Source: Rhodospirillales bacterium (GTDB lineage Bacteria > Pseudomonadota > Alphaproteobacteria > MPNO01 > UBA2964). From it: a stretch of 64,000 nt of DNA. Every line of letters starts with the position of its first letter. Position 1 is the stretch's first letter. The notes beneath the pieces were generated by a model. The model ran no database searches and was not told the origin of the DNA. It worked only from the letters and a program-made list of their open reading frames with translations. The translations under genes and the position numbers were made by a program. Location of the stretch: contig JAYOEY010000003.1 in the NCBI GenBank assembly GCA_038116945.1, positions 128,662 through 192,661 on the forward strand, given 5' to 3'. This document shows, piece by piece, positions 37,508 to 61,209 of this stretch.

Positions 37508-37606
37508 CGTCATCGCCGGACTTGTTCCGGTGATCTCCTGCCGACTGTACTCCAAACGGCACAAGATGCCCGGGTCCCCTGAACGTTTCTGGGCCCGGGC
37601 ATGACG
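37508..37606. repeat. CGTC-type REP doublet
   Basis: CGTCATCGCCGGACTTGTTCCGGTGATC...GATGCCCGGG..CCCGGGCATGACG, near-identical in reverse complement to 60011-60096. Confidence 0.85.
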
Positions 37607-37631
37607 AGCTATTTAAAGACCTTGGTCGGCC

Positions 37632-45426: not shown

Positions 45427-45831
45427 TTATAGTTTCACCTGTTCCAATTTACCTTTCCCGGAAAATTTATAAGGCACCAAAAATGCTCCGCTACTAATCA
45501 AGGATGCGGTTTCCATGAGGCGGGGCCACCACCTAATCAGCGCAGCTGCTTTGTCCCATTCTTTCTGGTGCGCCCATCCTTTTGCCAGCATAAACGTCAG
45601 CAAACCTGTGGAACGCAGCGCTTCACGTTCGATTGAATTACGTGTCAATCGATCTTGCGTAATAACTGCCCAATCTCCGTCCTCAGATAATTTTTTAATC
45701 CAATCAATGTCAGGAGTATTCTTGGGAAATATTTCGTCTAAGTGTTTAACCGATATATTCTCAGGCTCGCACAAAGCAGAAATTGCCTTTGCAAGATAAA
45801 TTGAAAGGTTTCGGTCGATAAAATAATTCAA
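45427..45831 (-). CDS. PIN-like toxin (VapC45/DUF5615-like)
   Basis: YFIDRNLS, PDIDWI, WAVITQD..I..E acidic PIN pattern. Low GC. Confidence 0.75.
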   Translation of the reverse strand: MNYFIDRNLSIYLAKAISALCEPENISVKHLDEIFPKNTPDIDWIKKLSEDGDWAVITQDRLTRNSIEREALRSTGLLTFMLAKGWAHQKEWDKAAALIRWWPRLMETASLISSGAFLVPYKFSGKGKLEQVKL

Positions 45832-46514
45832 GCTGCGTGGCGCTCTTCAAATTCAACAGCAGCTCGCACTTCCGATACAGATACATCGTACCACCTTGCC
45901 ACTCTCTGAAGAGAATCTTCCGCTTCAGCAGCTGCAGCCAGCACTTCTGTTGGAACACAGCTTTTTGCGACGATGGGTCTTCCGAAACTTAACTTAGGGT
46001 CGAGCATAACAACTTTCTTCGGGAACATCGGAAACCATCGAGATATTTGATCATTCGAAAACTCAAGACCCCGATATAACGACGGACTAACAATGTCGTT
46101 AAAAACCCAAGTTTTCAAGTTCATATCAAAAAGTTTTATATCTCCCATATCATCAATTCTCTGGAAAATCCGATTTCCATCGGTTCGGAACTGTCGGCGC
46201 GTGAATGGATGGCCATCTTCAAACATTTCACATGCCAAGGCAGCTGCTTCCCGAATCGCCTGCCAACTCACATGGTGTTTCCTAAAAGCATGGATAAACC
46301 GGATCTCCATTAAATCTAAGAAGCTTAAAGCGACGTGTTCATCAACTTTATCCAAATCGCTTTTCCAAACCGGCGGCATAGAGCGATCTCCGTCTCCGAC
46401 GCGGAACTTGTACCCGCCGATCCACCGACGGATGCTTTGCGCGCTAGTCCCAGTCAATGAGGCAGCTTCACCGACCGTATAGAGACCGACACCGATAAGT
46501 TGATCATTGCTCAT
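45828..46514 (-). CDS. HTH + DUF433 antitoxin (VapB45-like)
   Basis: N-terminal HTH (LYTVGEAASL..IRRW), SFLDLME and C-terminal DP..SFGRP..V..AVEFE. ATGA overlap with the PIN gene. Confidence 0.8.
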   Translation of the reverse strand: MSNDQLIGVGLYTVGEAASLTGTSAQSIRRWIGGYKFRVGDGDRSMPPVWKSDLDKVDEHVALSFLDLMEIRFIHAFRKHHVSWQAIREAAALACEMFEDGHPFTRRQFRTDGNRIFQRIDDMGDIKLFDMNLKTWVFNDIVSPSLYRGLEFSNDQISRWFPMFPKKVVMLDPKLSFGRPIVAKSCVPTEVLAAAAEAEDSLQRVARWYDVSVSEVRAAVEFEERHAA

Positions 46515-46660: not shown

Positions 46661-47914
46661 TCACCCCTCAAAAAACACGTAACTCCGCACCACCACGTTC
46701 CGCCGGTTCCGGGCCGTCGCGGGCGCTGTCGGGTCCTTGCACGCCGTGTGAAACGACCAGCGCGAGACCGAGCCGTCGGCGATGCTGTCGTAGCATTTCA
46801 GCATCGAGACCTCGGTCTCCTTCTGCTGCGGGAACCAGTACCATTCATGGTCGGGGTGCCAGGTGAAGCGCGTGGTCTCGCCCACGCGGTCGTCATAGAT
46901 GCGGTAATTGTTGATATAGGGCTGCTTCGCGAAGGACGGCCAGGCGCACAGCACGAACGGGTACTGCCCGACCGGCTCATCCGGCTTGGCGAGGTTGATC
47001 GACATGAAGCGGCGCGACATCTTCTCGCGCGCCTCGGCTTCGGTGTAGTTCTGCTGCCGCCCGAAATTGCGCAGATTCTGCGTCAGCAGCTCCCAGCAGC
47101 GCAGCCGGCCGGAATTGTCATTGAGATCGTTATGCACCCGGTTGGAATAGCTCGACTGCACGCCGGGATTCTTCGCATCCTGGTTCTCGGTGCGGTCGCC
47201 GGTATAGTCGGCGTCGAAACAGTCATGGTTATAGACCAGCGCATCGGTCGCGCCGGGGAAGAAATCGAGCAGCAGCTTTTCGATCTCGGGATAGAACACG
47301 CGCTCCACCTCGGCTGCGTCGTAGATATTCTCGAGCTTCGACTCCAGATGCGCCACCGACAGGCCGAGCCTGTCCATGCATTCGGCGCTGTCCGGGCGGA
47401 GGCCGGGATAGTACTCGCCGATCCGCCGCGCATCGCGCAGCACGACCGGGAAGTACAGATTGTATTTCTGGTTGTTTTCCTGCTGACGCCGGATCAGCCC
47501 CATATCGACCGGCGGGGCGGGGTTGCGCCACAGCGAATTCGACGGCACCACCGAATAGGTTGGCCTTTCGTAGACCGTATAGCCCAGCGGCGCGACGATG
47601 CCGCCCTCCGGCGCCGCGATCCCCTGCTCGTTAATATAGGCGAGGCAGTCTTCGTATGTCCGGAAGCCGGGGCCCCATTTGGTTTCGATCGGGCCGGGCG
47701 GCGCGTTCTCGATCCGCGCGACCAGGTTCGGCCCCTCATCGTCGGCGGCCAGCGCCAGCGCGTCCTTCAGCGCCTCGCCCGTGCCGGCATCGCCATCGCG
47801 CTCGAACGACAGATAGGACAGCCCGCCATTGGTCGCGATCGGCGGCGGCTGCCCCTCGGTCAGCTGCAGCGGCGGCACGAAGGATGCGGATTGCCGGGTA
47901 TCGATGTGATCCAT
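46661..47914 (-). CDS. CmcJ/NvfI-like Fe(II)/2OG-type oxidoreductase with N-terminal extension
   Basis: VHND (HxD), HEWYWFPQQ...LKCYDS, FHTA..DPTAP..R...VR. Confidence 0.7.
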   Translation of the reverse strand: MDHIDTRQSASFVPPLQLTEGQPPPIATNGGLSYLSFERDGDAGTGEALKDALALAADDEGPNLVARIENAPPGPIETKWGPGFRTYEDCLAYINEQGIAAPEGGIVAPLGYTVYERPTYSVVPSNSLWRNPAPPVDMGLIRRQQENNQKYNLYFPVVLRDARRIGEYYPGLRPDSAECMDRLGLSVAHLESKLENIYDAAEVERVFYPEIEKLLLDFFPGATDALVYNHDCFDADYTGDRTENQDAKNPGVQSSYSNRVHNDLNDNSGRLRCWELLTQNLRNFGRQQNYTEAEAREKMSRRFMSINLAKPDEPVGQYPFVLCAWPSFAKQPYINNYRIYDDRVGETTRFTWHPDHEWYWFPQQKETEVSMLKCYDSIADGSVSRWSFHTACKDPTAPATARNRRNVVVRSYVFFEG

Positions 47915-48056: not shown

Positions 48057-48344
48057 CTATCGGACCAGGTCGTCGTAGAGGTCACGCCAGTCCGGGTTCA
48101 TCTCACGGATCAGATTGACCTTCCATTGGCGCGGCCAATGCTTGACGTTCTTTTCACGCTGGATGGCTGCCAGGGCCGTTTCATGAATTTCGTAGTAGAC
48201 GAGACGGTGGAGGTTGTAGCGTTTCGAGAATCCCTCTACCGACCCGGCTTTATGTTCATGGGCACGGCGCGCGAGATCGTTCGTGACACCGACATAGAGC
48301 GTTCCGTCGGGTCGATTGGCAAGCATATAGACGAAGTACGCCAT
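48057..48344 (-). CDS. Stand-alone GIY-YIG nuclease family protein (95 aa)
   Basis: YFVYMLA...LYVGVT.DL.RR..EH...Y....LVYYE....AIQREK..K.W.R.WK..LI...NP.W.DL. Confidence 0.92.
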   Translation of the reverse strand: MAYFVYMLANRPDGTLYVGVTNDLARRAHEHKAGSVEGFSKRYNLHRLVYYEIHETALAAIQREKNVKHWPRQWKVNLIREMNPDWRDLYDDLVR

Positions 48345-48363
48345 TATGCGATTCAACCGGCGA

Positions 48364-48466
48364 GAGATCACCGGGACAAGCCGGGTGATGACGCCTCAAA
48401 TTGTTCTCTGTCTTGCCCGAGCCCAATCTTTCGTCATGCCCGGGCGTGTCCCGGGCATCTTGCGGA
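48364..48466. repeat. Pair of CGTC-type REP palindromes upstream of the GIY-YIG gene
   Basis: GAGATCACCGGGACAAGCCGGGTGATGACG (48364-48393) and CGTCATGCCCGGGCGTGTCCCGGGCATCT (48432-48460). Confidence 0.85.
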
Positions 48467-48487
48467 GGCAGAGCGCGCCGTCAGAAG

Positions 48488-48531
48488 GATCACCGGGCCC
48501 GAATTCACTTTACGCCTGTGGACGGCGACCT
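48488..48531 (+). repeat. 44-bp direct repeat, right copy
   Basis: GATCACCGGGCCCGAATTCACTTTACGCCTGTGGACGGCGACCT. Confidence 0.9.
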
Positions 48532-50421: not shown

Positions 50422-50451
50422 CGTCATGGTCGGCCTTCGCCGACCATGACG
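50422..50451. repeat. Perfect CGTC-tagged hairpin (REP-like, possible terminator)
   Basis: CGTCATGGTCGGC-CTTC-GCCGACCATGACG. Confidence 0.75.
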
Positions 50452-56159: not shown

Positions 56160-56243
56160 TGTCATCCCGGACCTGATCCGGGATCCCTATATCCGCTGTC
56201 TGCGCGTTGGCCCGATGGACCCCGGCTCAAGGCCGGGGTGACA
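56160..56243. repeat. TGTC/CGTC-type REP doublet
   Basis: TGTCATCCCGGACCTGATCCGGGATCC...GGACCCCGGCTCAAGGCCGGGGTGACA. Confidence 0.8.
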
Positions 56244-60010: not shown

Positions 60011-60096
60011 TGTCATGCCCGGGCCCGGACCCGGGCATCTTGTGCGGACTGGAGCGAAATCGGCAGGAGATCGCCGGGACAAGCCCGGCGATGACG
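60011..60096. repeat. CGTC-type REP doublet
   Basis: TGTCATGCCCGGGCCCGGACCCGGGCATC...GATCGCCGGGACAAGCCCGGCGATGACG. Confidence 0.85.
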
Positions 60097-61138: not shown

Positions 61139-61209
61139 TGTCGCCCCGGACTTGATCCGGGGTCCAGTCACCGGTTGCCTCTGGACCCCGGATCAAGTCC
61201 GGGGTGACA
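61139..61209. repeat. TGTC-type REP doublet forming a near-perfect 29-bp inverted repeat
   Basis: TGTCGCCCCGGACTTGATCCGGGGTCCAG...CTGGACCCCGGATCAAGTCCGGGGTGACA (1 mismatch). Confidence 0.85.

Follow-up and report, generated by a model that had tools for sequence, protein, structure and literature searches.

A GIY-YIG nuclease gene and a pair of CGTC-tagged REP hairpins form a probable REPtron-like mobile module in Alphaproteobacteria

Repetitive extragenic palindromes (REPs) are among the commonest non-coding repeats of bacteria, and only their GTAG class has a proposed mobiliser, the REP-associated tyrosine transposase (RAYT), which together with GTAG-type REPs and REPINs makes up the systems called REPtrons. 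The CGTC class is dominant in Alphaproteobacteria. According to Di Nocera et al. (2013, PMC3733652), REPs of this class have a terminal CGTC or TGTC tag, a stem of 8-9 bp starting from AT, a loop of 4-5 nt and a short tail that is mostly CCA, and are mostly arranged as head-to-head dimers; in the authors' words they 'apparently lack a dedicated transposase', and CGTC units flank no RAYT. The Neisseria dRS3 and Rickettsia RPE repeats are placed in the superfamily, and the string 'GIY' does not occur in the article. Here we describe a locus in a 64,000-nt stretch of DNA from a Rhodospirillales bacterium (GCA_038116945.1, contig JAYOEY010000003.1, positions 128,662 to 192,661; 'the window'), at which a gene for a small GIY-YIG nuclease stands next to two CGTC-tagged hairpins. 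An original prediction, made from the sequence alone, had proposed that the nuclease may drive the spread of these REPs, and its statement that no mobiliser is established for them agrees with the same article. The interpretation as a whole is partly supported: association, co-variation and selfish mobility hold, and the pairing of nuclease and REPs is real, REPtron-like and probably undescribed. In the full-text literature, with subscription journals and supplements outside the coverage, no link between GIY-YIG proteins and REPs was found.

The open reading frame (ORF) in the window is intact and belongs to a large family of stand-alone GIY-YIG nucleases of ~95 aa, found mainly in Alphaproteobacteria, which travels with an inverted pair of CGTC/TGTC-tagged REPs as a selfish module of ~0.4 kb (order: L-REP, 12-24 nt, gene, 1-16 nt, R-REP). 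The module resembles REPtrons in that a low-copy gene lies between inverted REP hairpins, the flanking REP is that of the genome's dispersed family, REP types differ between paralogs, doublets that have no gene are abundant, orphan REPs occur in some genomes without the gene, and descent is vertical at one site. Unlike in REPtrons, the enzyme is a 95-aa GIY-YIG hydrolase and not an HUH/Y1 transesterase, the REPs are tagged with CGTC instead of GTAG, and the module inserts whole with target duplications of 33-45 bp. As a GIY-YIG hydrolase forms no covalent intermediate and joins no strands, the chemistry must differ from that of REPtrons. GIY-YIG is the sole Pfam match of the protein, which thus is not an HUH/Y1 (IS200-like) transposase, and for this reason the module is at most a functional analogue of REPtrons, not a member.

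A different parallel is offered by restriction-modification (R-M) units inserted 'with long target duplication'. According to Furuta, Abe and Kobayashi (2010, PMC2853133), these are likewise nuclease-encoding inserts with no integrase or transposase, bracketed by a direct repeat of >30 bp, which occurs nowhere else in the genome and is single at the empty site of a relative; their GC content is below that of the genome, and the mechanism of insertion is likewise unexplained. The GIY module differs from them in its length of only ~0.4 kb, the absence of a methyltransferase, the terminal hairpins and the family of gene-less derivatives. Unique repeats of >30 bp bracket an insert with no other mobility gene in the window (44 nt) and at the homologous loci L059 (33 nt), L037 (45 nt) and L018 (42 nt). 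The repeat is single-copy at the empty site for L059 against genome G419 and, less cleanly, for L037 against G504; no empty site was found for the window among the 40 relatives searched, or for L018, whose flanks lie apart in its relatives.

These comparisons show that the module is a discrete insertion, which can land in REP-free sites and duplicates a target of 33-45 bp. At L059 in genome G403, a module of ~386 bp (7 nt, L-REP, 12 nt, the 297-nt gene, 13 nt, R-REP, 9 nt) sits between two copies, identical at 31 of 33 positions, of the last 33 nt of the upstream gene, and exactly two copies exist genome-wide. The relative G419 has the two genes side by side; only one copy of the repeat and no REP are present between them, and both repeat copies of L059 map to one 26-nt stretch there; in twelve further relatives the flanking genes are 31-150 nt apart. 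As the empty site is REP-free, the hairpins of L059 arrived together with the gene. The duplication at L037 (G404) is perfect (45/45), comprises the last 27 nt of an ORF and 18 nt of intergenic DNA and occurs twice genome-wide. G504 provides the empty site, although its alignment is less clean than that of L059 with G419. At L018 the 42-nt repeat that brackets the module occurs exactly twice in the genome; an empty site was not found, the flanks being on different contigs in the relatives.

Two further observations concern these sites. The intergenic site of L059 is occupied in the related genome G422 by another GIY module (L213) with different stems, and one of the two modules lacks a long target duplication, which points either to a preferred site or to an old, diverged occupant. 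Beside the L018 module (L018:783-880) lies a dispersed repeat of ~90 nt, of which many copies with 80-85% identity are present in every genome of the genus that was searched, and which is unrelated to the tagged hairpins.

Internal deletion can also remove the gene from the module, so that only a REP doublet stays behind. At a syntenic intergenic site in Bradyrhizobium, the gene is matched in 17 of 61 genomes, a count that includes the query genome, and in G344 the L-REP and the first 48 nt of the ORF are joined to the tail of the ORF and the R-REP. Several genomes carry gene-less or degenerate doublets at this site, and some a different insert. The gene (77-82.5% identity) has diverged in step with the genes on either side (82-88%), which suggests that it has long resided there and has been lost repeatedly. 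Structurally, gene-less doublets are deletion derivatives of the module. Derivatives of another kind are found in the 1.2-Mb genome G242 (L130, L134, L138, L142, L125), where four dispersed copies with 95-97% identity over 300-360 nt are internally deleted units that retain ~47 N-terminal codons; 21-bp terminal inverted repeats lie outside their hairpins, target duplications of 10 bp are present at two of the four copies (one perfect, one 9/10), and the full-length copy is at a contig end. Subterminal hairpins as cis signals and the multiplication of short non-autonomous derivatives, as in G242, are features shared with IS200/IS605 elements and miniature inverted-repeat transposable elements (MITEs); the module has neither a TnpA nor a DDE gene. 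IS200/IS605 elements are not known to produce a target duplication. The empty sites with target duplication and the multiplied deletion copies are direct indications of the selfish unit of nuclease and palindromes that the original prediction had proposed.

The Bradyrhizobium site allowed two additional observations. The hairpins at the gene (L182-L192 against L012) are 90-97% identical between species and the neighbouring genes 82-88%, indicating either stronger constraint or homogenisation. In other Bradyrhizobium species (L199:186-593 in G353, L200 in G385, L203 in G350) the site of the L012 GIY module is occupied by a small DUF559 gene (PF04480, E 1.6e-37, a nuclease domain of the Vsr/PD-(D/E)XK type), which is flanked by inverted copies of a different hairpin (GCCCTCTCCCCTTGTGGGAGAGGGT). 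This arrangement is a second design in which a small nuclease lies between hairpins, and it hints that the combination of a small nuclease and a hairpin pair may be general.

The association of gene and hairpins was quantified on homologous units. A scan of one genome per species yielded 539 relatives, and 120 loci were fetched: the best 80 of the 539, ten from relatives and 30 from multi-copy genomes. Removal of pseudogenes, duplicates and copies at contig ends left 103 distinct units, all intact and flanked by 100 nt or more in both directions. When the upstream flank was aligned with the reverse complement of the downstream flank, 75 of the 103 units scored at least 32, and none of the 103 did so with shuffled flanks. 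A tagged hairpin is present within 150 nt in 92 units, on one side only in 21 of them. In the others the orientation classes FR (tags outward), RF (tags facing the gene), FF and RR stand at 50:12:5:4 (chi-square p 3e-17). The spacing in the 50 FR units is narrow: the upstream hairpin ends a median of 21.5 nt before the ATG (interquartile range 15.5-23) and the downstream hairpin starts a median of 12 nt past the stop codon (8-16). A stricter, earlier detector applied to 80 loci found hairpins upstream in 48, downstream in 46, on both sides in 37 and on neither in 23. Hairpin density is 6.70 per kb up to 150 nt from the gene and 0.42 per kb at more than 300 nt, a 16-fold enrichment; against distant DNA free of long ORFs (1.0 per kb, from eight hairpins in 8 kb, as there is little such DNA), the enrichment is ~7-fold. 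The predicted accumulation of palindromes near the gene was therefore found (6.7 versus 0.42 per kb), and gene and REP family also co-occur across genomes, as described below. Direct repeats on both sides within 350 nt occur in 44 of the 103 units, and many of these are blocks of R-REP, linker and L-REP with lengths of 73-194 nt.

The hairpins are also matched to their genes. The left and right arms agree with at most one mismatch in eight positions in 33 of the 50 FR units, and in the complete genome G300 four paralogs carry four different stems, each of which is common to the left and right hairpin of its unit. Alignment of 26 distinct L-hairpins revealed compensatory changes in eight of the nine stem pairs (37 cells; none of 500 shuffles as high); the corresponding pairing figure of 98% is partly circular, because the rows had been picked by a detector that demands pairing. 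On the protein tree, stem types cluster (24 changes versus 31.9 after shuffling, 0/300 shuffles as low), a result that is confounded by host relatedness. The co-variation of REP and nuclease that had been predicted is thus seen in paralog-specific, left/right-matched stems and, with this confounding, in stem types that track the protein tree.

At the level of whole genomes, the REP pattern is found in 17 of 18 relatives with the gene and in three of 23 without it (G009 with 33 copies, G035 with 25 and G013 with one). Among 301 genomes of Alphaproteobacteria that are at least 90% complete, the gene (called at E up to 1e-5; 108 positive) is present in 33 of 38 with at least five copies of the pattern and in 75 of 263 others, the latter group including the unpublished genomes G072 and G246. 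Because the genomes are related and not independent, the association is overstated by the Fisher p values of 1e-7 (41 relatives) and 5e-12 (301 genomes). Distribution is patchy (108/301 genomes; four of twelve within one genus), the copy number of the gene ranges from 1 to 11 per genome, and pseudogenes occur. Module-flanking hairpins belong to the REP family that is dispersed in the same genome: this applies to the genome of the window (G000), G036, G403, G028 and G038, and not to G300 and G180. G036 contains 226 near-identical REPs, and the identical REP type flanks its GIY genes; G403 contains 20 REPs, and three gene-less doublets among them are made of the same hetero pair as found around its module.

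It should be added that the REPs of G036 (L151-L170) are mostly doublets with a conserved 57-nt spacer. As several copies share at least 30 nt of flank and three are identical on both sides, part of this expansion consists of larger duplications. A distant, UPF0213-like GIY-YIG gene in G285 (L171, contig C33) has a CGTC REP doublet that starts 5 nt past its stop codon; G285 is a REP-rich genome in which the main GIY-YIG family is missing.

The features of the locus in the window, together with the two gene-less doublets, are as follows.

37508..37607, no strand: gene-less REP doublet of the same two half-types as at the gene, the R half with an enlarged loop
47997..48040, plus strand: direct repeat copy 1, 44 nt, 16 nt past the stop codon
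48057..48344, minus strand: GIY-YIG ORF, intact, 95 aa (ATG 48344-48342, TAG 48059-48057)
48365..48394, minus strand: proximal hairpin (L-type REP, CGTC-tagged, degenerate), its tag directed away from the gene
48395..48431, no strand: linker of 37 nt between the hairpin tags, the 'x' of an R-x-L arrangement
48432..48460, plus strand: distal hairpin (R-type REP, CGTC-tagged) with a stem of 9 bp and a loop of 5 nt, tag facing that of the proximal hairpin
48461..48487, minus strand: stretch of 27 nt resembling the spacer of a gene-less REP doublet
48488..48531, plus strand: direct repeat copy 2, 44 nt, its end in gene orientation being CCCGGTGATC, the 3' arm of an L-type REP
60012..60095, no strand: gene-less REP doublet of the same two half-types

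The original prediction had described a 95-aa GIY-YIG gene with two CGTC-tagged palindromes from 20 bp upstream, arranged back-to-back and made of the same half-units as the doublets at 37508 and 60011. All of this was confirmed: the ORF is present and matches PF01541, the hairpins stand tag to tag with 37 nt between them, and both doublets are real and each consist of one GCCCGGG-type half and one C(G/A)CCGG-type half, the distal half-unit at the gene recurring in both. Read on the minus strand, the proximal hairpin is CGTCATCACCCGG-CTTGT-CCCGGTGATCT and ends 20 nt from the ATG; it is imperfect (folding energy dG -4.7 kcal/mol, z -1.1 against shuffles). The distal hairpin, on the plus strand, is CGTCATGCCCGGG-CGTGT-CCCGGGCATCT, with a 9-bp stem free of mismatches (dG -11.4, z -5.1; no equally good fold in 200 shuffles). 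With a CGTC tag, stems of nine pairs that start with AT and loops of 5 nt, the two hairpins are members of the CGTC-tagged superfamily of Di Nocera et al. (2013). Their tail is CT(C/T) and not CCA; a CCA end is present in 20 of 26 related L-REPs, and heterodimeric doublets occur. Folded as a whole, the upstream region of 126 nt gave no significant structure (z -1.3), a search against Rfam gave no match at E up to 1, and scans of the locus for promoter and terminator consensus sequences found none.

The direct repeat of 44 nt, which had not been noticed in the original prediction, brackets the gene and both hairpins; its copies are identical at 40 of 44 positions and are the only two genome-wide. 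Together with a GC content of 55-56% over the gene versus 63% in the genome, the unique repeat matches the pattern at L059 and L037, from which we infer that it is most simply read as a long target duplication. Independent metagenome unitigs bridge repeat copy 1, gene and hairpins, and also the hairpins and repeat copy 2, so that the layout is no assembly artefact, with the caveat that the four estuary-metagenome runs of one study from which these unitigs come (contigs only) may be the source of the assembly. Among the joints in these four runs there was no empty site, excision or circle of the cassette, and other metagenome contigs that touch 48430-48462 are simply other REP copies.

In two features the locus is odd: the R-REP lies upstream instead of after the stop codon, and at the end of the repeat stands the 3' arm of an L-type REP, with the spacer-like 27 nt directly following it. 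Both would be accounted for by circular permutation or rearrangement of the unit, and a permuted variant with the order spacer, R-REP, 37 nt, L-REP, gene would give this layout. The R-x-L arrangement upstream of the gene is also found at L095, L099, L100 and at paralog 2 in the genome of the window. The best match of the 27-nt stretch at 48461..48487 is the spacer of a doublet elsewhere in the genome (G000:C3:108133, z 3.3), and other doublets match weakly; the resemblance is at most suggestive.

In the 4.2-Mb genome, the pattern GTCATNNCCGGN{5,8}CCGGNNATC occurs 34 times and the reversed control not at all, which places the REP family far above chance. A census of hairpins counted ~88 tagged ones in three sub-families, including some false positives. 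Three GIY-YIG paralogs are encoded (100%, 61% and 58% identity), and at all three a tagged hairpin in a common orientation ends 20-22 nt before the ATG; paralogs 2 and 3 have in addition an inverted hairpin copy 12-15 nt past the stop codon. The flanking REPs are of family A at paralog 1 and of family B at paralogs 2 and 3. A search in G001 for the empty site of paralog 2 did not find it, one flank being syntenic and the neighbour a different gene. Tagged hairpins of other sub-families also occur in the window, namely a fully palindromic family-C unit (50423-50450), a family-B doublet (56161-56242) and a family-B singleton (61185-61208); a nuclease gene flanked by family-C hairpins was not found in this draft genome.

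The protein is a stand-alone GIY-YIG nuclease with a predicted Slx1/UPF0213-like fold. Residues 3-77 match positions 2-78 of the 78 in Pfam PF01541 (E 2.2e-14, 53.9 bits versus a cut-off of 22.6). Catalytic-type residues of GIY-YIG enzymes are both tyrosines of the motif, an arginine, a metal-binding glutamate and an asparagine. In 48 homologues Y6, Y17, G19, T21, R27, F39, A60, K68, R72, W74, K75, N83, W86 and D88 are invariant and H31 and E64 at least 90% conserved, and in 104 homologues, too, the catalytic-type residues Y6, Y17, G19, R27, E64 and N83 show complete or at least 90% conservation. The C-terminus bears a family-specific signature (K68, W70, R72, W74, K75, N83-P84-x-W86-x-D88-L89). 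The AlphaFold (AF2) model is confident (predicted local distance difference test 91.9) and comprises the nuclease domain alone, with no further DNA-binding domain in the model or by Pfam. The closest solved structures by sequence, 1zg2 (E 1.4e-4) and 1ywl (E 0.05), which are UPF0213 proteins of unknown function, are also the best matches in Foldseek, followed by the Slx1 chains 6seh, 7cq3 and 4xm5 (probability 0.9-1.0); I-TevI ranks only 26th by fold.

Thus the protein shares with the UPF0213/YhbQ/Slx1 branch of the GIY-YIG (URI) superfamily the stand-alone catalytic domain and the best sequence and fold matches, but the identity is only 25-28%, the C-terminal signature is its own, the zinc finger of Slx1 is missing, and no NCBIfam model reaches its cut-off for the 95-aa protein. 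Slx1 proper bears a C-terminal zinc finger of the PHD/RING type, according to a published account (PMC7017083); its absence from a protein of 95 aa rules out an Slx1 orthologue. The nuclease domain of Slx1, the fold neighbour, processes branched DNA. With GIY-YIG homing endonucleases such as I-TevI and the Seg proteins, the module has in common the GIY-YIG core and a selfish mobile gene, but its nuclease has no linker or DNA-binding domain and gives only weak N-terminal matches (TIGR01453, 22 bits versus a cut-off of 56, E 1.4e-4, residues 4-35 only; phrog_5123, E 1.8e-4), and it inserts with a target duplication and its own hairpins instead of converting an allelic site. As TIGR01453 stays below its cut-off and no extra domain is present, the protein does not match a homing endonuclease of the I-TevI type.

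We are confident that nuclease and hairpins form a real, specific and mobile unit. A composite reading, in which this mobile module is the 'REPtron' of CGTC REPs and the doublets are moved in trans, appears rather probable, and the module may be the long-missing partner of the CGTC class. The narrower claim that the nuclease itself acts on the hairpins and mobilises solo REPs, which is drawn from sequence comparisons, is put forward tentatively and might well prove wrong. A mechanism can be envisaged in which the tagged hairpins of the module, extruded as a cruciform or folded in a single strand, would be recognised by the module's own nuclease and cut there or nearby; staggered cuts in the target, followed by host repair or replication, would insert the module, and widely staggered cuts with host repair would yield the target duplications of 10-45 bp. 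Gene-less doublets would be non-autonomous derivatives that the nuclease could move in trans. Strand joining is beyond a hydrolase, so the host must supply the functions that finish the insertion. It is conceivable, though on the doubtful side, that REP-GIY-REP modules of ~0.37-0.45 kb represent a new class of autonomous prokaryotic elements, with a 95-aa nuclease as their sole gene and doublets as MITE-like offspring.

Several observations weigh against the composite reading. A GIY-YIG hydrolase, unlike HUH or DDE transposases, is itself unable to join strands. For the window locus no empty site was found among 40 relatives, in which the flanks are never adjacent; in G001, of the same genus, the flanks are 11 kb apart on opposite strands, and a 700-nt intergenic stretch has no match. 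No clear target duplication was seen around 20 near-identical doublets of G036, whose flanks are often themselves inverted or inside larger repeats. Close relatives of the query are over-represented among the 103 units, 11 of the units have no tagged hairpin, and the opposite orientation RF, seen in 12, is not clade-specific (11 changes versus 11.1 after shuffling). REP-rich genomes without the gene exist both among the relatives (G009 with 33 copies and G035 with 25) and in the class sample (G140 with 39, G228 with 34, G285 with 40, G309 with 25, G061 with five). A family profile search found no member in G035, G140 and G309, and in G285 and G228 only weak matches, which belong to another GIY-YIG subfamily. 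The original prediction had named such genomes as evidence against itself, and in this it is partly contradicted: five of the 38 REP-rich genomes have no gene, whereas 33 have it. Conversely, G300 and G180 contain 9 and 11 gene copies, yet their unit-specific hairpins number 2-6 copies per genome; possession of the gene thus does not automatically bring REP proliferation. G001 harbours 39 family-A REPs, and its sole gene copy is flanked by family B and contains an internal TGA. In addition, the genome tallies include weak protein matches (E from 1e-15 to 1e-5), which may be members of other subfamilies.

Alternatively, the gene might be a parasite of the REPs, a free-standing gene for a homing-type endonuclease that invades the spacers of pre-existing doublets, with the REPs spread by other means. 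The gene occupies exactly the position of the spacer in a gene-less doublet, REP-rich genomes without the gene and gene-rich genomes without REP expansion both occur, and the N terminus weakly resembles GIY-YIG models of the intron or homing kind (TIGR01453, below its cut-off, and phrog_5123). Nevertheless, this explanation is unlikely: the empty sites in G419 and G504 are REP-free, so the hairpins came with the gene, the G344 intermediate shows that doublets can derive from gene-bearing units by deletion, the gene is low-copy with divergent paralogs (58-61%) despite dozens to hundreds of potential targets, and outside its 95-aa catalytic core the protein has no DNA-binding domain.

The REPs might instead be passive neighbours, cis elements such as terminators, mRNA stabilisers or insulators that collect beside a small gene with horizontal mobility and have no enzymatic relation to it. 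Di Nocera et al. reportedly regard REPs as mostly located downstream of genes and probably RNA elements, orientation classes do not follow the protein tree, and the distant GIY-YIG gene of G285 also has a doublet 5 nt past its stop codon. The 16-fold enrichment over distant DNA, or ~7-fold over distant ORF-free DNA, the fixed spacing of inverted pairs (medians of 21.5 nt upstream and 12 nt downstream), the paralog-specific and left-right matched stems, the co-insertion of hairpins with the gene and the lack of a terminator- or promoter-like consensus at the window locus make such a passive relation quite improbable. Very improbable in turn is a domesticated housekeeping nuclease, which would process REP hairpins or cruciforms for genome stability, owe its linkage with REPs to this action, and move neither the REPs nor itself. 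A fold nearest to Slx1/UPF0213, structure-selective nucleases, the vertical descent at one Bradyrhizobium site and the conserved catalytic residues would fit this role, but not the patchy distribution (108/301 genomes; 4/12 in one genus), the copy number of 1 to 11 with pseudogenes, the insertions with target duplication, the multiplied deletion copies or the repeated loss of the gene at a syntenic site.

If REP-GIY-REP modules are indeed such a new class of autonomous elements, they would be the smallest known in prokaryotes, and the whole CGTC-tagged REP superfamily would gain its missing mobiliser; we know of no insertion sequence as small as the module. With the nuclease as mobiliser, 95 residues of hydrolytic nuclease would suffice to drive a process resembling transposition, an explanation for how REP doublets arise would be at hand, and a tie would exist to the unexplained 'insertion with long target duplication' of R-M genes. 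The mobile nuclease-hairpin module makes the question of the mobiliser of the CGTC class directly testable, for which one small protein and short hairpin oligonucleotides suffice. For annotation, hundreds of ORFs labelled 'GIY-YIG nuclease family protein' could be described, with their flanking repeats, as one element.

Downstream of the cassette, at 46661-47914 of the window (minus strand), lies a gene for a 417-aa protein with no Pfam family above the cut-off, and neither this neighbour nor the nuclease matches any PADLOC model. The 417-aa gene is adjoined by a gene for an HTH_66/DUF433 protein at 45828-46514 (minus strand).

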